From assembly GCA_042218075.1 (NCBI GenBank), contig JBDGRK010000005.1, forward strand, positions 36,716-100,715: DNA of 64,000 nt. Reading direction: 5' to 3'. This stretch comes from Candidatus Nanohaloarchaea archaeon. Lineage in GTDB: Archaea > Nanohalarchaeota > Nanosalinia > Nanosalinales > Nanosalinaceae. Positions 14,831-37,757 of this stretch are shown here, one piece after another. The notes under the pieces were generated by a model. That model was given only the letters and a program-made list of their open reading frames with translations. It did not search any database and was not told the origin of the DNA. Made by a program: the position numbers and the translations under genes. The stretch's first letter is position 1. Each line of letters begins with the position of its first letter.

Positions 14831-15841
14831 TCAGGAAACCCTCAGAACTATATCTTTTCCTTCATCTACAGTCACATTTACGCCGAATTCTCCCAATACC
14901 TCCATATTTGTCTGCACGTGCCGGGTTAACTCAGGAACGGAGATTTCTCCACCAACCACTGCCATGAAAACCAGTAACTGGTCAGCCATATAGCTGTCTA
15001 CGGCAGCTTCTCCAGATTGGAAATTCCTGAAGCCTTCGACCGCCTTTTTTGCAACCTCCTCACTCCTCTTGCCTTTCTCTCCTAAAGAATCAAAGCCTGC
15101 GATAGAACTCTCGTACACAGCCTTCAGGAGCAGCGAAGAACCCGTGGAATCCGTCCGCTCGTATTCGACCTGCTTTTCGATCGGGACGGAGATATGAGAG
15201 TTCTTCAGCCTCCTAGCGGCCTCGTCGGCCTGTCTATCCGCTACATCCTGATCCACAAGCTCTTCCGAGGCCTTCGAGTAGATCTCGAATCTCTCCAGAT
15301 CTCCCCTCTGTCTGATCTCAACCGGTTCAAGAGAATGTGGTCGGGTTCTCAGCTCAACTTCACCTCCTCCCTCCGGGTAGTAACCTGTCTTTTCAAGCTC
15401 CAGGTCTCCCCTGAAACCAATTTTTCGCAGAAGAGGCAGCTTCACGTGCTTCAGATAGTTGAAACTGGGAGACCATTTCACATCTGTCCCTCCTTTAACT
15501 TTAAGCCTGAAACCTGAATCGAACTGAGAGCTGATCGGCAAAACTGTATCCAGTAGCAGGGTCACGCTGCCCGCAGTACCGATGTTAGCGGTAAAAGACT
15601 GATTCCTGAGCTGCAGCGGCCTGAAAACAATTTCTTTCGACCCCATCTCCGCTCCCTCGACCTCTGCAGATGTCAGCCTCTTCACCGCCTCAACGCATTC
15701 CAGGTGCTGCCTCTTCAGCCCGGGATTCGATCTGTTGGCCCTGATATTCTCCATCCTGAAATCTTCGCCCCTTACAGCAGAAAGAGTCAGCGCGGTCCTC
15801 AGCATCTGGCCGCCTCCCCTCGATCCATCAATCTCTATCAT
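14831..15841 (-). CDS. rtcA: RNA 3'-terminal phosphate cyclase
   Basis: IDGSRGGGQMLRTAL, IRANRSNPGLKRQH, GYYPEGGG, ADQL, HVQTN. Confidence 0.95.
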   Translation of the reverse strand: MIEIDGSRGGGQMLRTALTLSAVRGEDFRMENIRANRSNPGLKRQHLECVEAVKRLTSAEVEGAEMGSKEIVFRPLQLRNQSFTANIGTAGSVTLLLDTVLPISSQFDSGFRLKVKGGTDVKWSPSFNYLKHVKLPLLRKIGFRGDLELEKTGYYPEGGGEVELRTRPHSLEPVEIRQRGDLERFEIYSKASEELVDQDVADRQADEAARRLKNSHISVPIEKQVEYERTDSTGSSLLLKAVYESSIAGFDSLGEKGKRSEEVAKKAVEGFRNFQSGEAAVDSYMADQLLVFMAVVGGEISVPELTRHVQTNMEVLGEFGVNVTVDEGKDIVLRVS

Positions 15842-15873: not shown

Positions 15874-16392
15874 ATGGAGGCCTTCGAACAGTCAAGAGAG
15901 CAACTCGAAGAATTCCTTGGTTTCATGGAGGAAGATATTGAAAACGTGAGAAGAGTGATCGAGTTCTGCGATAGGGAAGATATCGATGCTGATTTCATCA
16001 TCCACGGCAAGGCCGAGACAGTCGAGCAGTCTTCCGAAGTCAAGGATATAGAAGAGTCAAGGATTGTGAAAACCCTGGTATTCAGGTGTGGAGAGGAGTT
16101 CGTCGCGGTTCTGTGTCCTGGAGATGAAAGAGTCGATGAAGAAAAGCTGGAGGAAGTGACAGGTAAGGAAGTCAGGATGGCTAACCCTGAAGAGGTTGAG
16201 GAAGCTACAGGTTACGTAATAGGAGGAGTATCTCCCTTCGACCTGGACATACAGGTTCTGATGGAGGAAAAATTACTGGAAAGAGACAGGGTAAACCCGG
16301 CGGCGGGTTCAAGAGTGGTTGGAGCCGAGGTCGATCCTGAAGAGTTGATAAAGAGATTAAAAGCAGAAAAAGTTGAAGTAGTCGGAAAATGA
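15874..16392 (+). CDS. YbaK/EbsC/ProX aminoacyl-tRNA deacylase family protein
   Basis: IVKTLVF, ATGYVIGGVSPF, AAGS. Confidence 0.9.
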   Translation: MEAFEQSREQLEEFLGFMEEDIENVRRVIEFCDREDIDADFIIHGKAETVEQSSEVKDIEESRIVKTLVFRCGEEFVAVLCPGDERVDEEKLEEVTGKEVRMANPEEVEEATGYVIGGVSPFDLDIQVLMEEKLLERDRVNPAAGSRVVGAEVDPEELIKRLKAEKVEVVGK

Positions 16393-17021
16393 ATCAAGTA
16401 GAGCAGAGAAATGTAGACGACCTTGCGAAAAAACTCAGGAATAAAGCGGCCCTCTACTGCGATCTTTTCAAGATAGCCTACGGTCTTGAAGAAGATCCTG
16501 AGTTGATAAATGCCTATGTTGAGAAAGGCTGGGATTACGAGGTTTTGAAGCCAAGAATCGAGAATCTACTGGAAGAAACTGAAGATATTCTACCGGAGAC
16601 GAGAAATAATTATAGTAACAGAGAAGAGGAGCTTTACAGATTTTTCAGAAGGAAGGGAAAACCTAGATTTTCTAAAGAGTGTAAAAACTGGAGAAAACAT
16701 CATTCCGAAGCAGAGTTAGTGGATAACCAGAGAGATTCGGATACTCTTGATTACGGGCCTTTAATCAGGGCCCGGGCAACAGTAATCACCTTCGCTATGG
16801 AAGCTGCAAAATGGGATGAAGATCACTATGAATGGATACCTGATATAGAAGAGGATGATGACACTGAAATTATTGAGGAAACCGTTGACACGATTGATGG
16901 AGAAGTAGAACCTGCAACAGTTGCATCGCATCGATCAGAATCCCTCCCGCAAGAAAGTTCTGCAGCTTACATATTTCCGGGAATTGACCAGAACATAATT
17001 CTGGAACCGGAAAAGGATTAG
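16389..17021 (+). CDS. Hypothetical protein
   Basis: 210 aa acidic ORF with ATGA overlap to the ybaK-family gene. Confidence 0.65.
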   Translation: MNQVEQRNVDDLAKKLRNKAALYCDLFKIAYGLEEDPELINAYVEKGWDYEVLKPRIENLLEETEDILPETRNNYSNREEELYRFFRRKGKPRFSKECKNWRKHHSEAELVDNQRDSDTLDYGPLIRARATVITFAMEAAKWDEDHYEWIPDIEEDDDTEIIEETVDTIDGEVEPATVASHRSESLPQESSAAYIFPGIDQNIILEPEKD

Positions 17022-17060
17022 AGATTTAAGTTTAAGTTATCCAAGTTTAAATGATCACCA

Positions 17061-17181
17061 ATGAAAGGTGGACGTTTTTACACCGGAGCATTTTGAAAAT
17101 GACTTAAAACCTTCTAGCTTTAGCTCCAGCTTATTAAGTTCCCGCCCCGAATCTCTCTGCATGGTGGTTCTGAATGGATAG
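17061..17181 (+). promoter_or_regulatory. Putative Tyr-sensing frameshift leader of tyrS
   Basis: uORF 17061-17096 ATG AAA GGT GGA CGT TTT TAC ACC GGA GCA TTT TGA; +1 frame open to TAG 17179-17181, overlapping the tyrS ATG by 8 nt. Confidence 0.75.
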
Positions 17182-18196
17182 AGAGAACAGGAAAGAGTTT
17201 GTCCTCAGGAATACTGCAGAGTTTGTGAAGGAGGAGGAACTGGATGAGGTGCTGGATAAAGATGAACCCCGCGCCTACGTTGGATACGAGACTTCTGGGC
17301 CCGCCCACCTGGGACACTGGATCTCGGTGAGAAAGATGCTGGACCTTCAGAAGGCTGGCTTTCAGCCTGTTATACTCTGGGCGGATCTCCACACATACCT
17401 GAACAAGAAAGGGGAGGAGGAATGGATCGAGGATATGATGGAGTACTGGCAGGCCACCTTCGAGGCACTGGGACTTGAGGCAGAATACACTAAAGGAAGG
17501 AGTTTCGAGGAAAAAACAGAGTATTTCCACGACGTACTGGAGATGGCGAAAGAGACCACGATTAACAGGGGGACTCGATCAATGTCGGAAGTTGCAAGAG
17601 ACGATGAAAACCCTTACATCTCCCAGATAATTTACCCTCTGATGCAGTGCCTGGACATAGAATATCTCGACCTTGACCTGGCGGTCGCGGGCATCGACCA
17701 GAGAAAGATTCACATGCTGGCGAGAGAGAAACTCCCAAAGCTCGGCTACAGGAAGCCTACCTGCCTCCACTGGCCGATGCTGGCTTCACTTTCAGGAACG
17801 GGAGACAAGATGTCGTCCAGCAAGAAAGATACAATGTTCCCTCTGCACGCCGACCCCGATCACATTAGAGAAATTATAGAGGAAGGCTACTGTCCGCAGG
17901 GAGAGGTTGAGGACAATCCTATCATCGAGATAGCAAAGTACTTCATCTTCGGAGCTGATCGAGAGCTAAAGATAGAGAGAAAGGAGGAGTACGGTGGAGA
18001 CATTCACTACGAGGATTTCGAGGCTATGGCTGAAGACTTCGAATCCGGAGATCTACACCCTCTAGACCTGAAGGAAGCTGTAGCTGACGAAGTGGTGGAA
18101 AGGTTTGAGCCGGTGAGGCAGCGATTCAGAGAAGAGCCTGAGCTGCTTGATCCACTGGAAGAGATAGGTCACGAGAGACCCGGATATCTCCAGTGA
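17174..18196 (+). CDS. tyrS: Tyrosine--tRNA ligase (archaeal type)
   Basis: YVGYETSGPAHLGH (HIGH), IYPLMQCLD, GIDQRKIHMLARE, KMSSS. Confidence 0.97.
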   Translation: MDRENRKEFVLRNTAEFVKEEELDEVLDKDEPRAYVGYETSGPAHLGHWISVRKMLDLQKAGFQPVILWADLHTYLNKKGEEEWIEDMMEYWQATFEALGLEAEYTKGRSFEEKTEYFHDVLEMAKETTINRGTRSMSEVARDDENPYISQIIYPLMQCLDIEYLDLDLAVAGIDQRKIHMLAREKLPKLGYRKPTCLHWPMLASLSGTGDKMSSSKKDTMFPLHADPDHIREIIEEGYCPQGEVEDNPIIEIAKYFIFGADRELKIERKEEYGGDIHYEDFEAMAEDFESGDLHPLDLKEAVADEVVERFEPVRQRFREEPELLDPLEEIGHERPGYLQ

Positions 18197-18243
18197 TCAC
18201 CCATTATTTTTATTTCTTCCAGAGAAAGCTAGAACGATCCGCA

Positions 18244-18337
18244 ATGAAGGGTGGACGCTTTTCCGGTCGGAAGGTTTTCGAATGAACCAAAACCTGTTCT
18301 AGTTAAAGCTTTCTTCCAAAGTGGTTGGTATGCTTGA
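18244..18337 (+). promoter_or_regulatory. Putative Ser-sensing frameshift leader of serS
   Basis: uORF 18244-18285 ATG AAG GGT GGA CGC TTT TCC ... TGA; +1 frame open to TGA 18335-18337, overlapping the serS ATG by 8 nt. Confidence 0.75.
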
Positions 18338-19595
18338 TATAGATCTTTTCAGGCAGAATCCCGAGGAGATCAGAGAATCACAGAGAAAAAGAGGTGAAGA
18401 TCCTGAAAAAGTAGATGAAGTTGTCGAAGTGGATAGAGAATGGAGAGAGAAGCTCCAGGAGCTGGAATCTCTGCAGCAGGAGAGAAATACTGTTGGAGAT
18501 GAAATTGCTGAAGCAAAACAGAAAGGGAAAGACGCCTCTGAAAAGATCGAAAGGATGCAGCAGCTGAAACAAAAGATAGATGAACTGGAGGATGAGGTAA
18601 AGCAGCTTAAGGAAAGACGTGACAACTTGAGATACCAGATTGGAAACTTGCTGCATGAATCAGTTCCCGAAGGAGAAGGAGAGGAAGACAATCCTGAAGT
18701 CAGGAGCTGGGAGCCTGAAGGAGGAAGAAAGGAGGATTCGAAGCTGGCAGCCCACATTATGGAAGAGCAGAATTTGCTTTCCTCGGAGAAAGCGACTGAG
18801 GTGGGCGGAGAAAGAGCCTATTACCTATCACCAAAACTGATACAGCTTAGTCAGGCACTGATAAACTTCTCTATAGATTTCCTAGAGGAAAGAGGTTTCG
18901 GTGTATACCAGACTCCCTACATGCTGGAGGAAGAATCGATCTCAGCCGCAGTCGATCTTGAAACATTCGAAGAACAGCTTTACCAGGTGAATGAAAACGA
19001 TCGATACCTGATAGGGACCGCGGAGCACGCACTCGCCGCAAAGTACCAGAACGAAGTGATAGAAGAAGAACTTCCCCTCAAACTCGGAGGTTTCTCAACC
19101 AACTTCAGGAGGGAAGCCGGGAAGCACGGCCAGCAGACAAGAGGTCTATGGCGAGTACACCAGTTCGAGAAGGTGGAGCAGTTCGTGTTCTGCAAGCCAG
19201 AAAACCACCTTGATATTCTTGAAGAGACTCTATCCAATGCCGAGGATATAATGAAGCAGCTTGGTCTGCCGTACAGGGTGGTTGATATTTGTGACGGCGA
19301 TATTTCCAACAAGACTTTCAAACAGTACGATATAGAGGTCTGGAGGCCTCCACTTGGAGAGTACGGAGAAGTAGGAAGCTACGGTTCGTGCACAGGCTAC
19401 CAGTCCAGGGAATTTAACACACAGTTCAGAGAGGGAGGCAACAGAAAGACACCCTACACTGTATATGCCACTGGATTAGTACCTCAGAGGATTATTACAG
19501 CTATATTCGAGAACAATCAGGAAGAGGAAGGCATAAAGATTCCAGAACCTCTAAGAGATTACATGGGAGGCAAGGAGTACATCAGGCTGGAATAA
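18330..19595 (+). CDS. serS: Serine--tRNA ligase
   Basis: MLDIDLFR N-terminal coiled coil, LIGTAE, FRREAG...RGLWRVHQFEKVEQF. Confidence 0.97.
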   Translation: MLDIDLFRQNPEEIRESQRKRGEDPEKVDEVVEVDREWREKLQELESLQQERNTVGDEIAEAKQKGKDASEKIERMQQLKQKIDELEDEVKQLKERRDNLRYQIGNLLHESVPEGEGEEDNPEVRSWEPEGGRKEDSKLAAHIMEEQNLLSSEKATEVGGERAYYLSPKLIQLSQALINFSIDFLEERGFGVYQTPYMLEEESISAAVDLETFEEQLYQVNENDRYLIGTAEHALAAKYQNEVIEEELPLKLGGFSTNFRREAGKHGQQTRGLWRVHQFEKVEQFVFCKPENHLDILEETLSNAEDIMKQLGLPYRVVDICDGDISNKTFKQYDIEVWRPPLGEYGEVGSYGSCTGYQSREFNTQFREGGNRKTPYTVYATGLVPQRIITAIFENNQEEEGIKIPEPLRDYMGGKEYIRLE

Positions 19596-19874: not shown

Positions 19875-20789
19875 TTATCTTTCTACCCTGTGCCGCCAGT
19901 CAGAATACTTCTCTCCTTTTCCACTTACAACTTCCATGAACTCCGACTGTATTTCTTCCGTTACAGGACCTCTTCCATCAGAAATCTGCTTTCCATCTAT
20001 TTCTCTAATAGGAGTGACCTCTGCCGCAGTACCTGTAAAGAATGTCTCGTCCGACCTGATAAGCTGGTCACGCGTCATCCTCTTCTCCTTCACGGCGTAA
20101 CCCAGGTCTTCGGCTATCTGCCTGACTGAATCCATCGTAATTCCTTCTAGAACAGAGGAAGCGGGCGGTGTTAAAAGCTCTCCATTTCTTACAGCGAAAA
20201 GGTTCTCTCCTGAGCCCTCGGCTACGTATCCTTCGGGAGTAAGCATTATCGCCTCATCCATTCCATTTCTTATGGCCTCCTGCTTCGCCATCACCGAGTT
20301 AACATAGTTTCCGTTAGCTTTTGCCTTCGTCGGCATAACGTTTGGGTGATGCCGGTTCCATGAAGCAGTCTGGACCTCGACCCCGTTCTTCAGTGCTTCC
20401 TCTCCCAGGTAAGCTCCCCAGGGCCAGACCGCTATCGAAACCTTGACAGGATTATCATTCGGGTTCAGACCCATAGGTCCGTACCCCCTGAAGGCGACAG
20501 GCCTGACGTAACATGACTTGAGTTCATTTTCAAGTATTATCTTTTCCGTGGCATTTACCAGCTCCTGTTTGGAGTAGTCAAGATTCATTCCGGTTATCTT
20601 CGCAGAGTCGAGGAACCTCTCCATGTGGGAGTCAAGCCTGAAAACCGCGGGCACGCCATCGTTCTCATACGCCCTTATTCCCTCGAATACTCCTGTACCG
20701 TAGTGCAGGGCGTGAGTCAGAACGTGTACATTCGCGTTTTCCCATTCAACCATCTCGCCGTCCATCCAGATGTAGTCAACAGGCTCCAT
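19875..20789 (-). CDS. ilvE: Branched-chain amino acid aminotransferase
   Basis: HALHYGTGVFEGIRAY, AKANGNY, EGSGENLF, LEGIT, FFTGTAAEVTPI. Confidence 0.96.
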   Translation of the reverse strand: MEPVDYIWMDGEMVEWENANVHVLTHALHYGTGVFEGIRAYENDGVPAVFRLDSHMERFLDSAKITGMNLDYSKQELVNATEKIILENELKSCYVRPVAFRGYGPMGLNPNDNPVKVSIAVWPWGAYLGEEALKNGVEVQTASWNRHHPNVMPTKAKANGNYVNSVMAKQEAIRNGMDEAIMLTPEGYVAEGSGENLFAVRNGELLTPPASSVLEGITMDSVRQIAEDLGYAVKEKRMTRDQLIRSDETFFTGTAAEVTPIREIDGKQISDGRGPVTEEIQSEFMEVVSGKGEKYSDWRHRVER

Positions 20790-25207: not shown

Positions 25208-26707
25208 TTAGATTTTTAGTTTTCTATTGAGCTTTTCAATCTGTTTCTGGCTGTAACTCTGGAACTTTGGTTCATATCTATAAAATGTCTTAAAGAACCG
25301 GATTACCGTCCAATTTCTCAAATAATATTTATACTTATCTCTAATCACAGTTGTGTCAAATAGTTTCTCCAATTTTGAGGCAGTATCACTATTTTTATTC
25401 TGGATTCTTAGCTCATCTTTGCTAGATATCAAGTTAGATGCTATATTATCTATATTTTGGGATACCTTGACAGGCAATTTTACACCTGAATTAGAATTTC
25501 CTCTCAATCCTACTTTGAACTCCACTTCTTCTTTATTCAATTTCTCCAAAAAAGTTTCTCTAGATTCAAATATTGAATCTAACTTCTCTACAGAAGCAAA
25601 ATCGATTTCATTCTCCCAAGCATAAACCTGATTTTTTGATATACCTAATTCAGATCCTAATTCCTTCTGGTATAGATTATTCCTTTCTCTATAATCTCTA
25701 ATCTCATCACCCAATCCTAGGACCCTTAAATCGCTGATTTTTCCAAGATCAAAGTATGGTAAGTAAAAATTATGATTTCTTCTTCCCCTATAACACAGAG
25801 TCCTGGATCCATTTTTCAGCTTTGAAAAAATATGCTTTTTCTTCCTAGGATGTGCAGATCCAATCTTTTCGCAAAAGTATTCGAAATAATTACCTGAAAT
25901 CCTAATCCTGCCAACACCGTTCCTTTCTCTTCTATTTTTAGTCTCAATTCCCATATACTGAAGATCAGAAACACATTGATCGATAAAATGATCAGTTGCG
26001 GATGTTATTGTTACACGGTTACTTTGAGAAGAAACCGCACCATCTGCATCAAATAAACCCCTCCAATAAGCACCCAGCAATTCTTCATCTTCACTAAAAA
26101 GACTTGGCCGCCTTAATTTTCCTTTTTTATAAGATTCTGGCAACTTGAAAAAATATCTGAGGAACCTACAGAACCATTTATTTGAAACAGTCAGTTGAAT
26201 TTTATTTCCTCTATCTAGAATAGTTATAGATTTTTGAGGTATACCAAATAGTCTTTGAATCTTCATTGACATATCCTCGATAAAATCTCTGGAATGTGAG
26301 ATTTCCGAATCATTCTTTCCTCCGTCCACTAAAGTCCATCTAGATGAGTCAGAGAATCCGCCATCACCAGCAGCCAGACCAGCGAAATAAGCATATTCAT
26401 CTGATCTTAATTCAGAAATAAATCTAGGAGGATCAAATCTTGATTTATCTCCATATCCTGTGATGTAATCTATAGCTTCAGCTAGTTCTTTTGAACTATA
26501 TCTTGTTAAAAAGATTTCCAAAGGCCATAAGTTTCGCTCTTCGCAATTCCTAATTAAATAACCTTCATAATTTTCCAGATCAGTAGAATCAAAATTAAAT
26601 CTAGAGTTAAGCTTAGCGTATGGCTTCTCTCTAAAAGTTTTATCCAAATCTCTAGAGACCGATTCAACTATTTTAAGCTCTCCAGACTCGTAAAATAGCT
26701 CTTCCAT
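25208..26707 (-). CDS. Free-standing LAGLIDADG homing-endonuclease-like protein with XRE-type HTH
   Basis: FAGLAAGDG and WRGLFDADG motifs; LYQKELGSELGISKNQVYAWEN HTH; AT-rich; no intein termini. Confidence 0.85.
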   Translation of the reverse strand: MEELFYESGELKIVESVSRDLDKTFREKPYAKLNSRFNFDSTDLENYEGYLIRNCEERNLWPLEIFLTRYSSKELAEAIDYITGYGDKSRFDPPRFISELRSDEYAYFAGLAAGDGGFSDSSRWTLVDGGKNDSEISHSRDFIEDMSMKIQRLFGIPQKSITILDRGNKIQLTVSNKWFCRFLRYFFKLPESYKKGKLRRPSLFSEDEELLGAYWRGLFDADGAVSSQSNRVTITSATDHFIDQCVSDLQYMGIETKNRRERNGVGRIRISGNYFEYFCEKIGSAHPRKKKHIFSKLKNGSRTLCYRGRRNHNFYLPYFDLGKISDLRVLGLGDEIRDYRERNNLYQKELGSELGISKNQVYAWENEIDFASVEKLDSIFESRETFLEKLNKEEVEFKVGLRGNSNSGVKLPVKVSQNIDNIASNLISSKDELRIQNKNSDTASKLEKLFDTTVIRDKYKYYLRNWTVIRFFKTFYRYEPKFQSYSQKQIEKLNRKLKI

Positions 26708-26821: not shown

Positions 26822-27196
26822 TCACAGCGAGGATTCAGAGAATTCACCACCTCTCTCAAACATTCTGGCCTGGCTTTCACCCCCATCGACAGAAGAGTTG
26901 TGCCGAACATCCCTCATTTTTTCTTCGTATTCCTGTTCTTGCTCTTCCACTTCTCCTCCATCGGTTGCAACAGGTTTCAGGAAGTCTTTAGTCTGTCTCC
27001 AGTTGGGTAGAGATCTCATTCTCTGCATCATTAATTCATTTCCAACCTCAGCAGACATAACTCCCTCATAGTCGCTATCTGTTTCAGGAGTTACTCTGTA
27101 CTTGCTTCTTCTAGTCTCCTCTACATGGTAACCGTTTCTATCAAACTCTCTCGCCTCTTCTTCAGTGAGATCAAGGTAAACAGAGTTTCCAGCCAT
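26822..27196 (-). CDS. Orphan acidic protein with ATDGG motif
   Basis: Start MAGNSV at 27196 shares TGATG with the upstream mini-ORF. Confidence 0.65.
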   Translation of the reverse strand: MAGNSVYLDLTEEEAREFDRNGYHVEETRRSKYRVTPETDSDYEGVMSAEVGNELMMQRMRSLPNWRQTKDFLKPVATDGGEVEEQEQEYEEKMRDVRHNSSVDGGESQARMFERGGEFSESSL

Positions 27197-27279
27197 CAAG
27201 ATCTCCCCCAAGAGCTGTTTCTATTCTCGTACTGGTTTTTGACGTTTGCGTCGTGGTTGTGGTGTGTTGTGTTTGTCAT
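27196..27279 (-). CDS. Mini-ORF (27 aa) coupled to the downstream orphan gene
   Basis: SD AGGTGA; MTNTTHHNHDANVKNQYENRNSSWGRS*; TGATG overlap. Confidence 0.6.
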   Translation of the reverse strand: MTNTTHHNHDANVKNQYENRNSSWGRS

Positions 27280-27284
27280 GGTTG

Positions 27285-27555
27285 TCACCTACAGCAAGAA
27301 GCTGTTCCCGACCTGCCAGGCCAAGAAACAGCGAGAAAACTCTACACAATAAGCAGCAGCACAATCAGGATAATCGAAACTGCACTGAATTCAGATACTT
27401 TCGAAAACAAACCAGAATCCATATTTGAGAAACTAACCGAGCAGAACATGTCCACCCTGGATAAAGCATCCACCCTGCACAAAATATTCACCCGTGGGGG
27501 CCGTGGACAGTGCTTTATGGAACATAGTCGTTAAGTCTCCTCTATTCTTTATAAA
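27285..27555 (-). promoter_or_regulatory. Putative Val/Ile/Leu-sensing triple-site frameshift leader
   Basis: TTTATAAA 22 nt before ATG 27525; uORF 27433-27525 with GGT GAA TAT TTT GTG / GGT GGA TGC TTT ATC / GGT GGA CAT GTT CTG; +1 frame ends IILIVLLLIV* at 27342; hairpin follows. Confidence 0.75.
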
Positions 27556-31406: not shown

Positions 31407-33341
31407 TTAATCCTGTCTTGACTGCTTGGCCCTCTCAGTCTCCATCCTCTGTTCCTTTTCAGAGGTGAGTCTCTTGGCTATCAGGTAGTAGGCCTCTCTC
31501 AGCTTCTTCAGGTCCTCGATCTCGCAGTACTCGTCTTTCCTGTGCACCATCTCCTGGTTCAGACCTATCTCCACGTAGGGAGTACCCTTCTCAGCAAAGT
31601 ATCTGCCGTCGGAAGTTCCCCCTTCCGTAATGTGTTCAGGTTCTCGACCCAGGACTTTCTGGAGTTCTTCAGTAGCTATCTTCCTGAACCTCTGGTCCGT
31701 GAGCTGGTATGCTCCGCCGTGATCAACTTTCGACTCCACCACGACATCAACTTCCAGATCTTCAAGCTCTTCCTCAATCCTCTGCCTGATCTCAAGGGTC
31801 TTTTGCTCGGGCGTGTACCTGATATCCATACCTATGTGGACTTCAGCTGGCAGGCTATTGTAAGTATCATCGCTGGATATTAGTGTCGGAGCAAGCGTTG
31901 GATCAGGAAGCTTCTTGTTTTCCACCTCCAGTTCCATTTCATTTAGGCGTTCCAGAGCCTTCGGAAGCGCCTTCAGCACATTTTTCTCCGCGTCCTCGAC
32001 TCTGGATGCGTGGACTGTATCTCCCTGGAGGTAGACATCAAGCCAGAATGCTCCTCTTGTTCCTGTCTGGATATCTAGATCGGTTGGCTCACCGTTAATC
32101 ACGTAATCGAAGCCATCCCCATCCCTGTAGTAGCTCTCCACCAGTGCCTTAGTGCCGTTTTCACCTCCTATCTCTTCATCGCCAGATATCATCAACACGG
32201 CTCTACCGTCAAAGTTTGGATCTCTCCTGAGGTCGACGAATGCCTTCATCATGGCCGCCACCTCGGCCTTCATATCCGTTGCTCCACGGCCGTAAAGCTT
32301 TCCATCCAGAACTGTGGGATCAAACGGATCAGTTACCTCCCAACCCACTCCAGGTTCAACAACATCGAGGTGACCGTTGAAGCAGACGGAAGTGCACCCG
32401 TTTCCTATCTCGGCCGTGAGGCTCTTTACACCCTGGATGTCGTGTATATCTGATTTTATCCCGTTTTCCTGCAGGTAACGCTCCATAGTTCTGAAGATTT
32501 CGGGATCCTTCACCGGGGAGACTGTCTCCTGGCCTATCAGCTCTTTCGCAACATCCACAATATCTCTATCATCGGTTTCAAGCTCTTCCTCTCTGACTCT
32601 GCGCCCCTTGTAGCCTATCTTGTGGGAGTAGCCCTTGGTTGACATCACTATTGGATAGAAATCTTCTTCCGCCCTGAGTTCTTCTCCCTCTTTCCTGGCG
32701 AAGACCTCTCCCTCTTCAACTTTCTCGAAGTTCCTTGCTGTGAACTCGTAACCCGATCCCTTTTCCTCTCCGAATATGCTGAAAATATCCGGGTCGCTGA
32801 CCCTGTAGTCCGCGTCTATAACACCTTCAGCAGCGAGGAAGTTCACCATGATATCATATGCGTTCTCCGCGGCTTCCTCTGAACCCGGCTTGCCGCATTC
32901 CACTGAGATACCTCTCATGTAGTTCATCATGGTCTCCGGCATCCAGGAAAGATCCACCGCTGTATCCAGTCCGGAGTTCTTGACCAGATCTAGATCCCTC
33001 GGATCTATGAAGAAACCGAAAGGCGTGGGCTCTGACTCTGTGGAGTGGAAGTCAAGAACTTTAAGACCCTCTACTTCCTCAAGCAGTTCCGCAGCTAGCC
33101 TCTCCTCGTGTACATCGCTTTCAGGGTCTCCCGGGAAGCATCTGTTCAGGTCTTTCTCGATGTACCTTTCCCCCTCTTCCCTTGCCTCTTCATTCGCCAG
33201 AATAAACTTTACCGCTTTCTTCAGCTCGTGTTCCGACCGCTTCAGCTTCCTCATCGCCTTCAATCCGCAGTCCTCCACGCCGTGAACACATGCTATAAGC
33301 GCGTACTCCGGCTTACCCTCACCGAGAATTTCCACCTTCAT
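31407..33341 (-). CDS. Fusion of AstE/AspA-like deacylase and M20 (DapE/ArgE-like) metallopeptidase
   Basis: N-terminal VHGVEDCG/DLNRCFPG/DFHST; C-terminal FNGHLDVV, GRGATDMK, DEEIGG, GEPT, GGTSDGR. Confidence 0.88.
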   Translation of the reverse strand: MKVEILGEGKPEYALIACVHGVEDCGLKAMRKLKRSEHELKKAVKFILANEEAREEGERYIEKDLNRCFPGDPESDVHEERLAAELLEEVEGLKVLDFHSTESEPTPFGFFIDPRDLDLVKNSGLDTAVDLSWMPETMMNYMRGISVECGKPGSEEAAENAYDIMVNFLAAEGVIDADYRVSDPDIFSIFGEEKGSGYEFTARNFEKVEEGEVFARKEGEELRAEEDFYPIVMSTKGYSHKIGYKGRRVREEELETDDRDIVDVAKELIGQETVSPVKDPEIFRTMERYLQENGIKSDIHDIQGVKSLTAEIGNGCTSVCFNGHLDVVEPGVGWEVTDPFDPTVLDGKLYGRGATDMKAEVAAMMKAFVDLRRDPNFDGRAVLMISGDEEIGGENGTKALVESYYRDGDGFDYVINGEPTDLDIQTGTRGAFWLDVYLQGDTVHASRVEDAEKNVLKALPKALERLNEMELEVENKKLPDPTLAPTLISSDDTYNSLPAEVHIGMDIRYTPEQKTLEIRQRIEEELEDLEVDVVVESKVDHGGAYQLTDQRFRKIATEELQKVLGREPEHITEGGTSDGRYFAEKGTPYVEIGLNQEMVHRKDEYCEIEDLKKLREAYYLIAKRLTSEKEQRMETERAKQSRQD

Positions 33342-35176
33342 CAGACTCTCGCACCCTGATTCTCGCCGTATTCAGTTGCCGGCATAAGCCCAAGGACATC
33401 CTCCAGATGCGCCTCAAGATCTCCAGCGTATGATGGAGCCATCGCCCCTGCTGTATCCATAACATCTGAATCGTACACATCCCTGTAAATATCCATCCAT
33501 TTTTCCTCTTCGTCAAGTCCAGGGAGGGTCTCAGGATCTGAAGGATCTAAACCTTCTACCTCTTTCTCGAAAGCCTGCCTGATCTTTTCACCGTGAGGCA
33601 TAACTGCTGCCTTTGCAAGAGCAACCTGGTACTCGTCATCGTAGTTCTGTCTCGAGACTCTGTACTCGAATCCTCCTGTAGCTGGCTTGGGCCTTACATC
33701 GTGGTGGATGCCCGCCATATGGGCGATTGAGACGTTTCGCTTGTGGTATTCGTCTTTTCTCTCTTCGTCCATTCCCTTGAGGTCAACCTTTCCTCTGACT
33801 CTCTCAAGTTCCGGTTCCTGATCTGAACCGGAATTAACCACCTTTGTGAATTCAATATCGCCGTCTTCAATATATTCCGCCGGTGTCTTGGCATCATCTG
33901 GACTGAGAGCGAGGAGTGTTACATCTTCCAGCTCTAACTCCTCATCTCCGTAAAACTCGACATATTCCTCGTCAGGAGGCAGGACCCAGACCATGTGATG
34001 CTCTGTCATGTAGTGATCCATCATGTTCTCGAACTCTCCCATTTCTCTCTCCTCATCCAGTAGCTTTTCAATGAGAGTCCAGGGTGTTCCGACCCTGTCT
34101 TGCTTGTCTTCTCCTTCAATCTCTGAAATCACGTGCTGTGCGTAAGTGTCATGCTCCCAGTATACCTGGTTGACTGCGGTCCTGGAGGTTTCTCCCTCGT
34201 ATTCAACCTTTGTGTTCGAACTTACCGTTTCAAGACCTCTCTCGAACAGCATCCTGTAAACAATCTCGTCTGAGATTCTCTGGTCCAGATCAAGGTTGCC
34301 GTTCTCATCCGCAAAAAGTCCTGAAGTCAACTGTGTCGAGCCGCCGAACATGTTAAGAGCGACCTTCGGCCCGAATATCGTGGCCATGTAGTCGAAGTAG
34401 TACGGAACATCGGTGAAATGATCAAAGTACTGGTTCAGGAATGCAAGAGCCTCATCCCTCTCCCATTCCTCCAATTTACCTCTTTTAATTACATCTCTTC
34501 CATCTGTCTCATCCGGAACTTCTTCAGGATCTGTGAACTGCGGCGTCAGTCCTTCTTCAGCGTATTCCAGGGCAGGGAACTCTCTTTCAAGGTAATTCTT
34601 CGTGCCCTCCTTGAAGCTTTCAAGTATAGCCAGCAGAAGACCGAACTCTCCATCTTCAGTGACTCTCACTGCTCCGGAATCTATCTCCTGCTGGGCCCCA
34701 AGATCGAAGTCAATTTCGGGCGTGGAAACCGCTATATCCTGGTCCGAGTCCTCAGTTAAGTCAAGTTTTAGAGCCGCAGGTTTCTGCCCGCCATGACCTT
34801 TCTCAACTACTTTATCCAGTTCAAACTCAAATTCCTCTCCGTATTCATCGGTTCTCTCTCTTAACTCCGAGTCTATCTCGCTCCAGAGCTCCTCGTTCAG
34901 AATCTGCTGATAAACAGGTGAAAGAGGCATCACTCCCTCCTCATTTAAAATCGGATTCTCGCTCTCAATACCGATTCCGACTCCTTCCGAGGAAGAGGCA
35001 TCGACATTCGAATTTTCCTCATAGTTCTCTTCCCAGTCCTCAACAGCACTTTCTCTAAAATCATCGTAAGAAAGGGTTTCCTCTACCTGATCATCTTCTT
35101 CAAGCATCTCTTCCACTGTTTCATTCTCCGAATCTCGGCTTTGAGATTCCGAAACATTTGCTTGTGAAACTGACAT
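33341..35176 (-). CDS. Divergent glutamate-cysteine ligase (GCS2/YbdK-like) carboxylate-amine ligase
   Basis: GIGIESE, GSTQLT and HHDVRPKPATGGFEYRV match the order of GCS2 motifs; SD AAGGTGA before ATG 35176; TGATG overlap with the peptidase fusion. Confidence 0.6.
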   Translation of the reverse strand: MSVSQANVSESQSRDSENETVEEMLEEDDQVEETLSYDDFRESAVEDWEENYEENSNVDASSSEGVGIGIESENPILNEEGVMPLSPVYQQILNEELWSEIDSELRERTDEYGEEFEFELDKVVEKGHGGQKPAALKLDLTEDSDQDIAVSTPEIDFDLGAQQEIDSGAVRVTEDGEFGLLLAILESFKEGTKNYLEREFPALEYAEEGLTPQFTDPEEVPDETDGRDVIKRGKLEEWERDEALAFLNQYFDHFTDVPYYFDYMATIFGPKVALNMFGGSTQLTSGLFADENGNLDLDQRISDEIVYRMLFERGLETVSSNTKVEYEGETSRTAVNQVYWEHDTYAQHVISEIEGEDKQDRVGTPWTLIEKLLDEEREMGEFENMMDHYMTEHHMVWVLPPDEEYVEFYGDEELELEDVTLLALSPDDAKTPAEYIEDGDIEFTKVVNSGSDQEPELERVRGKVDLKGMDEERKDEYHKRNVSIAHMAGIHHDVRPKPATGGFEYRVSRQNYDDEYQVALAKAAVMPHGEKIRQAFEKEVEGLDPSDPETLPGLDEEEKWMDIYRDVYDSDVMDTAGAMAPSYAGDLEAHLEDVLGLMPATEYGENQGARV

Positions 35177-35181
35177 TGTAT

Positions 35182-35390
35182 CACCTTTCAATTAGGAAGT
35201 GCAGAAAGAGCGAATTCTTTTCATGGAGGCCCGCCCTTTCAACACTCCGGGTCGATGGGCCCCCTTCAAACGACTAAAATAATCAGCAGGATAGCGATAC
35301 CGCTGACCAGATTCACTGATCCCGGTTCAAAGTTTTCGGCCAGCGTTTCTAACATATTTGATGCATCCACAGCAAACATTTAAATAAGGT
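35182..35390 (-). promoter_or_regulatory. Branched-chain-amino-acid leader peptide (no frameshift site) with downstream hairpins
   Basis: TTTAAA about 23 nt before ATG 35355; uORF 35266-35355 MLETLAENFEPGSVNLVSGIAILLIILVV*; GC-rich stem GGGGCCC/GGGCCTC; TCGCTCTTTC can pair with SD GAAAGGTGA. Confidence 0.65.
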
Positions 35391-36474: not shown

Positions 36475-36647
36475 GCGAAGCACCTCTTGGAGAATAATCT
36501 AAGAGAAAGCTCGATTTCTACCCAATAATACCGATAATCGAAATGATGGAAATAGATCCAGAAACTTCAGAAAAATCAGATAGAGTTGGGACTCCCGAAA
36601 CTTTACTCAGATTCAGTAGACCGAAGGATAAAGCGTCCACCCTTCAT
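36475..36647 (-). promoter_or_regulatory. Putative Ile-sensing frameshift leader of ilvA
   Basis: uORF 36603-36647 ATG AAG GGT GGA CGC TTT ATC ... TAA; +1 frame ends ISIISIIGIIG* at 36518; CTCTT/AAGAG hairpin over the SD. Confidence 0.8.
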
Positions 36648-36701: not shown

Positions 36702-37469
36702 TTACATTCCCATAGTTCCCTGAGAATCGACCTCATCTGTTTCCGGAGTTCGGTCTCGAACATAGCTATCTATAGATGTTCCCGGCATGTAGCCTCTTGA
36801 TTTAATGTACTCCTCTCTGGCTTCAACTATAACTTCATCCGGTATCTCAACATCTCTTCGAGCTTCTGGAGCCCCATCATACCTGTTAGCGGTTACAGCA
36901 TAGCGAGTATCTCCTTCGAGAAGCTGGGTTATCTGCCACTCATGAACCGGATTGATATTGCTCCCAGTGACTTCCTCAAGAAAGTTCTCATCATCTATAT
37001 CCGTCTCCTGCGCCAAGACCCTTATCATCTCCAAATCGTCCACACCAAGATATTCCTCCTCTTCAGGCACTCTATCTCCATAGATCAGAGAATCCGGCAT
37101 CTCATCTTTATAGATGAAATCTCCTTCTCCCGGATCCCACCATCTCTGATCTCTCGGATCCTGTCTGAACTCTACAGTCTCAGCACCACGATTATCAGTG
37201 CCGCTCTGAGTTTGAGTTATCACACCTCCATCGGTTCTTGCTTCATAACCCTCTTCTTCAAACATGAATTCTGAGGCGGTTTCCATATCGCTTTTCTCTT
37301 CCATGATAGAATCGTGGGGATGTTCTGTACTTGTACCGGGATCCCGGCTTTTAGCTTCATTCGGATTTGTGGGCGGAGATTCATCATGAAGAATTTCATG
37401 AACCCTGATGCCTTCTCTGAGTCTTTCATCCAATTCTTCCCTATTCTTGTACTGAGACTTACCCATCAT
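36702..37469 (-). CDS. Orphan acidic protein with RTDGG motif
   Basis: 255 aa ORF, SD GGAGGTGA, ATGATG overlap with the mini-ORF stop. Confidence 0.7.
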   Translation of the reverse strand: MMGKSQYKNREELDERLREGIRVHEILHDESPPTNPNEAKSRDPGTSTEHPHDSIMEEKSDMETASEFMFEEEGYEARTDGGVITQTQSGTDNRGAETVEFRQDPRDQRWWDPGEGDFIYKDEMPDSLIYGDRVPEEEEYLGVDDLEMIRVLAQETDIDDENFLEEVTGSNINPVHEWQITQLLEGDTRYAVTANRYDGAPEARRDVEIPDEVIVEAREEYIKSRGYMPGTSIDSYVRDRTPETDEVDSQGTMGM

Positions 37470-37548: not shown

Positions 37549-37757
37549 AGTGTTCACCTCGAAATTGAGAAACGAGAAATGAACACTGCGCTTTTTACAG
37601 CAGCAGTGCCAGCAGAATCAAAAGTAGCAGTGAAAGTCCAAGATCAATTGAATCGGAAATCGAGAAAATAGCTGGAGCTCGTTTATCGCAATTCCAGAAC
37701 GCGTCCACCTATAGTTAATGGCTCCATACTATTTCCCGTTTAATCAGTCTTTATAAA
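37549..37757 (-). promoter_or_regulatory. Putative Leu-sensing frameshift leader with anti-SD hairpin
   Basis: TTTATAAA 22 nt before ATG 37727; uORF 37683-37727 with GGT GGA CGC GTT CTG; +1 frame ends LGLSLLLLILLALLL* at 37595; AGTGTTCA..CTCG/CGAGGTGAACACT stem at 37549-37587. Confidence 0.8.

Follow-up and report, generated by a model that had tools for sequence, protein, structure and literature searches.

The stretch of DNA considered here, hereafter the window, comprises 64,000 nucleotides from Candidatus Nanohaloarchaea archaeon (contig JBDGRK010000005.1, positions 36,716 to 100,715), and its feature of interest is a short leader that precedes the gene tyrS and is a candidate for +1 ribosomal frameshifting. 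The tyrS gene, a 340-amino-acid open reading frame (ORF) at 17174–18196 on the forward strand (+), encodes an archaeal-type tyrosine–tRNA ligase (NCBIfam NF006330, 403 bits against a cut-off of 220). Re-reading of the letters upstream of it places a leader ORF, MKGGRF-Y-TGAF*, at 17061–17096 (+), with its ATG at 17061 and its stop codon TGA at 17094–17096. The 11 sense codons and the stop of this frame (frame 0) read ATG AAA GGT GGA CGT TTT TAC ACC GGA GCA TTT TGA. The phenylalanine codon TTT (17076–17078) stands directly before the tyrosine codon TAC (17079–17081), and together they form a candidate UUU-U slip site, as the original prediction for this locus had claimed.

Further elements are arranged around these codons on the same strand. 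A TATA-like box, ATTTAAGTTTAAGTTAT, which belongs to the leader promoter P1, lies at 17024–17040, with its centre about 27 nt before the leader ATG. Within the leader, a Shine–Dalgarno (SD)-like element, AAGGUGGA, at 17065–17072 is complementary to the 3' end of 16S rRNA (...GGATCACCTCCA) and includes a GUG in the +1 frame (17068–17070). It is followed by the E-site codon CGT (17073–17075), by the shift-prone P-site codon TTT, and by TAC, the sensor codon, which is the proposed hungry A-site codon. Read from 17080, the +1 frame runs for 33 sense codons with no tyrosine among them (TPEHFENDLKPSSFSSSLLSSRPESLCMVVLNG*), and this connector ORF (17080–17181) closes with a TAG at 17179–17181 that overlaps the tyrS ATG at 17174, within ATGGATAG. 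The −1 frame is stopped early, 26 nt past the sensor. The box AAAACCTTCTAG at 17106–17117 and the motif TTATTAAG at 17131–17138, both inside the +1 ORF, are probably the B recognition element (BRE) and TATA box of a proximal promoter, P2. The Tyr-free +1 frame, its stop over the start codon, the early −1 stop and the place of TTATTAAG all proved to be as originally described.

Conservation of the cassette and its sensor codon

The tyrS leader contains a cassette of the form RGGUGGA-YRY-(U/G/C)UU-X, found in short leaderless ORFs and searched for with the pattern ARGGTGGAYGYKTT. This pattern has 150 matches among 41 related genomes, 32 of which are positive, compared with five for the reversed control, and across the phylum Nanohaloarchaeota it turns up in 58 of the 70 genomes. 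When an ATG-anchored version was compared with the genomes of 185,579 species, about 30 among the 80 matches listed came from Nanohaloarchaeota (Nanohaloarchaea, Nanohalobium, Nanosalina and Asbonarchaeaceae); the remaining matches listed were single, scattered bacterial ones, as an information-content estimate predicts for chance. Judging from these genomes, the original prediction saw one locus of a phylum-wide system.

Nearly all of the motifs (141/150) are part of an ORF: an ATG stands upstream in the same frame, and frame 0 meets a stop no more than 80 nt past the sensor. The sensor codons of these 141 leaders specify 13 amino acids in all, namely Trp (31), Leu (19), Ser (18), Thr (18), Gly (11), Ile (10), Val (9), Tyr (8), Cys (7), His (4), Phe (3), Pro (2) and Lys (1). 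No cassette with an Ala, Asp, Glu, Asn, Gln, Arg or Met sensor was seen among the pattern matches. Two matches with an Arg codon, which lie in long ORFs, and the single Lys match, which stands before an endonuclease V gene, were set aside as probable chance occurrences.

The downstream proteins were clustered, and representatives were identified with NCBIfam and Pfam. In 71 of the 71 sites that precede an aminoacyl-tRNA synthetase gene, covering ten amino acids, the sensor codon specifies the cognate amino acid of that synthetase (Thr 18, Ser 16, Gly 11, Tyr 7, Trp 5, Val 5, Cys 3, His 3, Phe 2, Pro 1). The non-synthetase targets are coherent with sensor identity as well. Trp sensors stand before trpB (four sites), trpD (two), a HisC-like aminotransferase (three) and an ArgE/DapE deacylase (four); an Ile sensor precedes threonine ammonia-lyase (three sites), and a Pro sensor precedes a ProC-ProB fusion.

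The three reading frames differ in where they end. In 62 of the 71 leaders before a synthetase gene, the earliest +1 stop is no more than 15 nt away from the gene's first ATG, compared with none in frame 0 and eight in frame −1, and shuffled spacers predict 17. The commonest +1 ending is the overlap ATGA (21 sites), and next comes a stop whose first base lies 5 nt beyond the A of the start codon (13 sites). Five of the nine misses are upstream members of tandem cassettes, and at least one miss (valS at locus L014) is due to the first-ATG rule, the real start there probably being TTG.

Two gene-anchored sets, for thrS and tyrS, were built without the motif, with 30 loci fetched for each and 29 and 27 of them usable. 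The thrS set carries the cassette in 22 of 29 loci, with the +1 stop placed between 3 nt before and 10 nt after the ATG in all 22 (13 of them ATGA). In the tyrS set the cassette occurs in seven of 27 loci, its sensor is TAY in all seven, and the +1 stop falls between 16 nt before and 7 nt after the ATG. In the comparison of orthologues proposed in the original prediction, every leader-bearing tyrS kept the Tyr codon (7/7, plus one from the pattern search, G024) and the stop position, and the other 20 of the 27 usable orthologues have no leader and a proximal promoter only. Orthologues without a cassette served as controls, and the frame measured was the longest one, other than that of the gene itself, to close near the ATG. 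For tyrS, its median length is 12 codons in the controls (n = 20) and 37 where a cassette is present (n = 7); for thrS, the corresponding values are 24 (n = 7) and 40 (n = 21), and no cassette-bearing locus falls below 29.

Frame-0 stops lie 42–297 nt (median 63) before the synthetase ATG, while the +1 connector ORFs span 20–106 codons and stop at the gene's own ATG. In Haloferax volcanii and Escherichia coli, distances of about 20 nt nearly abolish termination–reinitiation, and stop and start codons usually overlap by 4 or 1 nt, according to the parts of Huber et al. (2023, PMC10666635) that deal with such distances. The frame-0 stops are thus too distant, and only the +1 frame brings ribosomes to where reinitiation is expected.

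The absence of Tyr from the connector proved to be general, with no Tyr in the seven coupled tyrS +1 ORFs compared with a frequency of 0.031 in others. For nine of ten amino acids, the cognate residue is rarer in its own +1 ORF than in the +1 ORFs of other leaders (for instance, 0.048 against 0.165 for Ser, and 0.023 against 0.063 for Thr); Phe, with n = 1, is the exception. Additionally, the first Trp cassette of tandem pairs has a conserved +1 peptide, ..ISS[IV]KN[FIL]SW, with entropies of 0.97, 0.63 and 1.50 at the three codon positions (10 sequences), which reads as a coding signature of the +1 frame. From these sequences, the +1 ORF looks translated.

Constraints on the cassette and its promoters

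Within the cassette, the two glycine codons are GGT GGA in 28 of 29 thrS and tyrS leaders of the motif-free sets. In the same sets the following codon varies among CGY, TGY, CAY and TAY (Arg, Cys, His, Tyr) and keeps its YRY form. Since the glycine codons show no synonymous change and the next residue is variable, the constraint acts on the RNA and not on the peptide. Matches to the pattern have TTT or GTT as their P codon, and the motif-free thrS set adds CTT, CCT and CCC; TTT is the minor Phe codon of the window's genome (32%). Which P codon is used varies with the base that opens the sensor. Before C, GTT is found 23 times and TTT twice; before T, TTT is found 55 times and GTT 12 times; before A and G, TTT is found 29 and 20 times, that is, 49 times in all, and GTT never. 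This distribution suggests that UUU-C is avoided, as perfect re-pairing of tRNA-Phe would make the shift constitutive.

The RGGUGG part of the element can pair with six bases, 3'-UCCACU-5', of the 16S 3' end ...GGATCACCTCCA. This 16S fragment was found by a word search at the end of contig C28, and the Rfam SSU model found no 16S copy in the draft genome. The gap between GGUGG and the P codon is four bases long, the first G of the SD-like element lies 9 nt before the P codon, and real starts of the window's genome carry GGTG at −15 to −9. The SD-like spacing thus lies at the short edge of the normal range, which would fit a forward pull and makes a weaker case than prfB, the gene of release factor 2 (RF2).

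Aragorn reported only 12 tRNAs in the draft assembly, with no tRNA-Phe among them, and no tRNA of any kind in the window. Of the 41 genomes, just four gave a match to PF08608 (Taw1/TYW1), the domain for wyosine formation, three of them from genus g23 and one from genus g25; the 32 genomes with the UUU/GUU cassette pattern gave none. The one cassette seen in genus g23, before thrS, has a CUU P codon in three of three genomes. In Haloferax volcanii, included as a control, no match to this domain was obtained either. A tRNA-Phe without wyosine may make UUU usable for the shift, a suggestion that draws on two independent lineages only.

The position of the leader promoter is also constrained. TATA-like 5-mers upstream of 133 leaders are commonest 27 nt before the leader ATG, and most of them fall between −30 and −25. 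In archaeal promoters the TATA box lies about 27 nt before the transcript start, and the transcript start is therefore placed at the leader ATG, the leaders being on leaderless mRNAs. A single codon separates the ATG from GGT GGA in 56 of the 141 leaders.

A second box, CAAAACC with a TATA-like word after it, is conserved 25–45 nt before the synthetase ATG, and AAAA.CTTCT is invariant across eight aligned tyrS leaders. The box-plus-TATA combination is the only upstream element in thrS orthologues without a leader. The motif CAAAACCTTCTAG was considered as an RNA element and rejected; because thrS orthologues without a leader keep it beside a TATA box, it is read as the BRE/TATA of a proximal promoter. 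The second box is accordingly taken as a probable promoter P2 for basal expression, with TTATTAAG within that region, and tyrS is probably transcribed from two promoters, of which P2 lies inside the leader region.

RNA structure offers no comparable signal. No conserved structure was found when RNAalifold was applied to 14 thrS leaders (−3 kcal/mol, no covarying pairs), and the tyrS leader folds worse than its own shuffles (z = +1.61). No terminator or antiterminator hairpins were found over the 14 thrS leaders or the tyrS leader. Visual inspection suggests a local CAGC...GCUG hairpin ahead of the proximal promoter of several thrS leaders. At the tyrS start, the minimum-free-energy fold of 17151–17186 (+) pairs CUCUCU, which stands before the SD-like GGUGG of tyrS, with AGAGAG just past the ATG, thereby enclosing the start codon; this fold is overall no better than shuffles. 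A T-box or other known RNA family was also considered and rejected, with no Rfam match at gathering score over the 64 kb and none at E ≤ 1 over 16950–18400.

Proposed frameshifting and its rival explanations

The arrangement is probably best read as a prfB-like +1 frameshift cassette with a hungry sense codon in the A site, followed by termination and reinitiation on the synthetase gene. According to this proposal, promoter P1 would give a leaderless mRNA whose 5' AUG opens the short ORF, and the ribosome would soon reach the 16S-pairing RGGUGGA, the YRY codon, a shift-prone codon ending in UU (UUU at tyrS) and the sensor codon (UAC at tyrS). When charged tRNA-Tyr is plentiful, the sensor would be decoded and frame 0 would end 77 nt before tyrS, too far for coupling. 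When it is scarce, the A site would stay empty and the peptidyl-tRNA-Phe would slip one base forward on UUU-U. The shifted ribosome would then read the 33-codon Tyr-free connector, stop at the UAG inside AUGGAUAG and reinitiate on the tyrS AUG. In effect, more tyrosyl-tRNA synthetase would be made, and a feedback loop governed by tRNA charging would operate on top of basal expression from P2.

The sequence anatomy, its conservation, the match between sensor and gene, the frame statistics and the promoter position are established. The slip, the reinitiation and the direction of the effect (activation) are what we infer from them. The claim of a +1 shift at UUU-UAC under scarcity of Tyr-tRNA, followed by termination and reinitiation, is supported by the comparative data as the best fit, on the basis of the cognate sensor in 71/71 sites, the start-proximal stop in the +1 frame only in 62/71, and the TAY kept in tyrS leaders. 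For the phylum as a whole, we lean towards a modular amino-acid-sensing regulon, in which a +1 cassette with a swappable sense codon for at least 13 amino acids would convert shortage into reinitiation on synthetase genes. At biosynthetic and salvage operons the same cassette would gate a second leader peptide in the +1 frame and, in some Trp-controlled genes, perhaps a protein-coding frame.

Several points weigh against this interpretation. The open +1 frame of the single tyrS locus is not significant alone, because 28% of 2000 shuffles of its 92-nt spacer keep the frame open up to the tyrS start (chance of about 0.28), and the tyrS leader is absent from 20 of 27 usable orthologues. The genomes are kin, so that the counts overstate independent support. 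Sensors that start with A, G or C give the P-site tRNA no perfect re-pairing, and the SD-like spacing falls within the natural SD-to-AUG range, which weakens the argument from strained spacing. The sensor codons are not rare codons in the window's genome either; the idea that they might be was rejected, as TAC makes up 73% of Tyr codons and GGA 43% of Gly codons. Furthermore, many synthetase starts have an SD-like word of their own at −11 to −9, and together with the proximal promoter this suggests that coupling would not be the sole route of expression; the sign of the effect, too, is read from the arrangement of the sequence. The last of these objections concerns the GUG of the motif, which is invariant and in the +1 frame, and which could open the connector without any slip; the corresponding ORF, 17068–17181, is in the ORF list.

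This GUG is the basis of the main rival, which we regard as unlikely. It holds that two upstream ORFs overlap without a slip, that the connector starts at the GUG (17068), and that a ribosome paused at the sensor covers this start and tunes the flow. The features of the +1 ORF, namely its open frame, its stop over the ATG and its coding signature, require translation only, and the cascade of three cassettes before proS (described below) could equally be read as nested GUG starts. However, the TATA spacing puts the start at the leader AUG, and the 56 leaders of the form M-x-G-G leave 7 nt and no SD before the GUG. Initiation at GUG also leaves unexplained the conserved YRY-NUU step, the swaps to the likewise shift-prone CCY and CUU, and the link between the P codon and the base that opens the sensor. 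Moreover, a stall at the sensor would lower connector translation in starvation; homeostasis would then need an inhibitory connector, yet the stop is placed for coupling.

Models in which the ribosome stalls without shifting fit worse, and we consider them rather improbable. In these, arrest at the sensor, aided by the nascent KGGRF, would act through mRNA structure, stability or transcription, as in attenuation or erm-type control, and the +1 ORF would be irrelevant. A short leader with a cognate codon is indeed the hallmark of attenuation, the motif can be read as a conserved peptide (K/Q-G-G-R/C-F/V), and a ribosome at codon 7 of a leaderless mRNA could shield its 5' end. Against this, the Gly codons without synonymous variation and a fifth residue that changes among Arg, Cys, His and Tyr point to a constraint on the RNA, the 14 thrS leaders have no conserved structure, and the tyrS leader folds less stably than its shuffles. 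The bias towards the +1 frame (62 against 0 and 8 of 71), the depletion of cognate residues and the +1 coding signature would also be left unexplained.

A non-translational site bound by a protein or, as in a T-box, by tRNA, with the ORFs incidental, also fits worse and is very improbable: it could draw on the nucleotide-level conservation, the proximity to promoters and an amino-acid-matching triplet beside a conserved box, which recalls a T-box specifier, but there is no Rfam match or conserved structure, 141 of the 150 motifs are in frame with an upstream ATG that lies 27 nt past a TATA box and are soon followed by a stop, and the base after UGG is an invariant A, without the co-variation that a T-box discriminator contact would show.

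Further cassettes in the window and its genome

The tyrS leader is not the only copy in the window. The 18-mer that encodes MKGGRF occurs three times at two or fewer mismatches, compared with 0.12 copies expected, and none of 100 shuffles reached three; each of the other two copies differs by two synonymous changes (AAA/AAG and CGT/CGC). The first of them is a serS cassette at 18244–18337 (+), with the leader MKGGRF-S-GRKVFE* at 18244–18285 and the sensor TCC at 18262–18264. Its +1 stop, TGA at 18335–18337, lies over the serS ATG at 18330, within ATGCTTGA, and the SerRS family was confirmed through an orthologue. The second is an Ile cassette before threonine ammonia-lyase at 36518–36647 on the reverse strand (−), with the leader MKGGRF-I-LRSTESE* at 36647–36603 and the sensor ATC at 36629–36627. 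Its +1 ORF closes with an Ile run, ..SISIISIIGIIG*, at 36520–36518, 49 nt before the ATG used, and the orthologue of the enzyme is TIGR01127 ilvA.

Two further cassettes lie on the same strand. A Leu cassette at 37595–37727 (−) has the leader MEPLTIGGRV-L-ELR* at 37727–37683 and the sensor CTG at 37697–37695, and its +1 ORF closes with the Leu run ..LLLLILLALLL* at 37597–37595. A double cassette at 27342–27525 (−) is contained in one leader, ..VQGGCF-I-QGGHV-L-LG* (27525–27433), with the sensors ATC at 27462 and CTG at 27444 and a shared +1 ORF that ends ..VSIILIVLLLIV* at 27344–27342.

The draft genome to which the window belongs comprises 1.10 Mb in 40 contigs and contains more cassettes, namely MKGGRF-T before thrS, MSLSLKGGRF-F before pheS, MSFDWQKGGRF-V before valS, three Pro cassettes before proS and two Trp cassettes ahead of an operon that resembles one for salvage. 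At thrS, pheS and proS the +1 frame closes with ATGA, at serS with ATGCTTGA, at tyrS with ATGGATAG and at valS with TAAaATG. Throughout this genome, the frame-0 stop comes 3–16 codons, and the −1 stop 5–86 nt, past the sensor. Its LeuRS and IleRS genes have no cassette and a proximal TATA only, the Leu and Ile sensors preceding other genes.

The Pro cassettes lie outside the window, on contig C40 at about 13050–12550 (−), with the leaders MSGGCV-P, ..KGGYL-P-P and MTHDNQGGRV-P. They are nested, each in the +1 frame of the preceding one, and the last +1 ORF (98 codons) ends with ATGA on the proS start. Such a triple cassette would possibly form a three-step cascade with ultrasensitivity. The Trp cassettes, also outside the window, stand in tandem on contig C10 at about 50950–47500 (−), in a layout that relatives share. 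The second of them has the leader MKAQEDYGTAEAPKGGRF-W-KQP*, and its +1 frame is the frame of a 255-amino-acid protein without known family and without an upstream ATG. The stop codon of this protein overlaps (ATGA) the gene of an ArgE/DapE-family deacylase, which is followed by a gene that we take, from reading its sequence, to belong to the enolase superfamily. The 255-amino-acid gene may be a true frameshift-dependent gene of a Trp-salvage operon.

Just downstream of the Leu, Ile or Ile+Leu cassettes of the window, acidic proteins without a Pfam or NCBIfam family are encoded at 36702–37469, 33341–35191 and 26822–27211 (all −). In relatives, similar proteins of 540 amino acids (loci L115 and L121) are also preceded by Leu sensors. 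As their genes follow Leu and Ile sensors, a role in the acquisition of branched-chain amino acids is suggested. In all, five proteins downstream of Leu, Ile or Trp sensors have no Pfam or NCBIfam match. A 499-amino-acid ORF with LAGLIDADG-like and helix-turn-helix domains (25208–26707, −) also lies downstream of the Ile+Leu leader.

The neighbours of tyrS were named from a reading of their translations. On that reading they are presumably an RNA 3'-phosphate cyclase-like protein at 14831–15841 (−), a YbaK/prolyl-tRNA-editing-like protein at 15874–16392 (+), serS at 18330–19595 (+) and a branched-chain aminotransferase-like protein at 19875–20789 (−).

Significance and comparison with known systems

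If the proposed mechanism is true, these leaders would be the first case of programmed +1 frameshifting in cellular genes of archaea, and they would do with the ribosome what the T-box does in bacteria. We know of no T-box and no established leader-peptide attenuation in archaea. The mechanism would be general for a whole phylum of host-dependent DPANN archaea, and its use of UUU may be tied to the loss of the wyosine modification of tRNA-Phe. It would also mean that a hungry sense codon can serve as a programmable sensor, and hence as a part for synthetic biology. Moreover, amino-acid-related roles would be predicted for several acidic proteins under Leu, Ile or Trp sensors, and short ORFs and apparent frameshifts would be flagged as liable to mis-annotation by gene callers.

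No published description of such leaders was found in two reviews or in the full texts searched, which cover few subscription journals. In the part of the review by Atkins et al. (2016, PMC5009743) that lists archaeal frameshift cases, these are from haloviruses, magnesium chelatase and Sulfolobus only. A passage of a 2021 review (PMC8211752) gives the −1 shift of fucA1 as the sole programmed frameshift reported for archaeal cellular genes. Other +1 cases, such as antizyme (treated in a section of PMC8211752) and ZIP-2 of Caenorhabditis elegans (in portions of PMC11831180), are eukaryotic, respond to other signals (polyamines and elongation defects, respectively) and concern single genes.

Haloarchaeal termination–reinitiation provides a parallel for the proposed last step, with its ATGA overlaps and very short distances, at least in the portions of Huber et al. 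(2019, 2023; PMC6728339, PMC10666635) that describe them as necessary for coupling. The +1 stops of the cassettes are placed in just this way. In the haloarchaeal cases, two constitutively read genes are linked, whereas access to the upstream frame would be conditional in the present case.

The T-box shares the logic and the target genes of the cassettes, and in both a single swappable triplet specifies the amino acid. In the T-box, a structured RNA binds uncharged tRNA; in these leaders, which have neither an Rfam match nor a conserved structure, the triplet would be read by a translating ribosome.

Bacterial attenuation of the trp, his, ilv, pheST or thrS type likewise employs a short leader ORF, the translation of which responds to the charging of the cognate tRNA. 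Cassettes with Ile, Leu and Trp sensors are attenuation-like in that they lead into +1 ORFs with terminal Ile or Leu runs or with a conserved Trp codon; such runs resemble those of classical leaders but sit in the shifted frame instead of frame 0. A further difference is that one sensor codon stands in a fixed cassette, no terminator or antiterminator was found, and the proposed read-out is translational coupling.

The proposed slip resembles the shifts at hungry codons and at UUU_Y in E. coli, in which a weakly paired P-site tRNA slips or is bypassed while the A site awaits a scarce aminoacyl-tRNA. Sense codons that are decoded slowly are also the sites of shifts of the Ty1/Ty3 type. All of these shifts either are errors or yield fixed product ratios, whereas the one proposed here would act as a conserved, gene-specific sensor before a gene for tRNA charging. 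Where Atkins et al. (2016, PMC5009743) discuss hungry-codon shifting, it is treated as an error or as being of unclear use, and the CCC_UGA shift of the E. coli pheL leader is called incidental.

A close counterpart is prfB. In the passages of PMC5009743 on this gene and on shift-prone sites, UUU_Y is singled out as a site where +1 shifts occur with particular ease, and the shift site of RF2 genes is CUU_U or, rarely, UUU_U, with an SD stimulator 5' of the site that often encodes Gly; the short frame-0 ORF, the internal SD-like element and the shift site of the cassettes follow the same plan. In both systems, slow decoding in the A site, which reports the level of the regulated factor, would set the extent of frameshifting, although for the cassettes this is predicted from sequence. 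The differences are considerable. The A-site codon of prfB is the stop codon UGA, which reports RF2, and that of the cassette is a sense codon such as TAC, which would report aminoacyl-tRNA and is swappable among 13 amino acids in an archaeal system. The SD-like element pairs with another part of the 16S tail and stands at the short end of normal spacing. In prfB the +1 frame yields a fusion, while at synthetase genes it would be a connector to the start of a separate gene, reached by reinitiation; a fusion product is possible only at the Trp-type cassette of contig C10, where the +1 frame is that of the 255-amino-acid protein. The proposed system would therefore be new in its sensor (aminoacyl-tRNA at a swappable sense codon), in its output (reinitiation on a separate gene) and in its domain (cellular genes of archaea, across a phylum).

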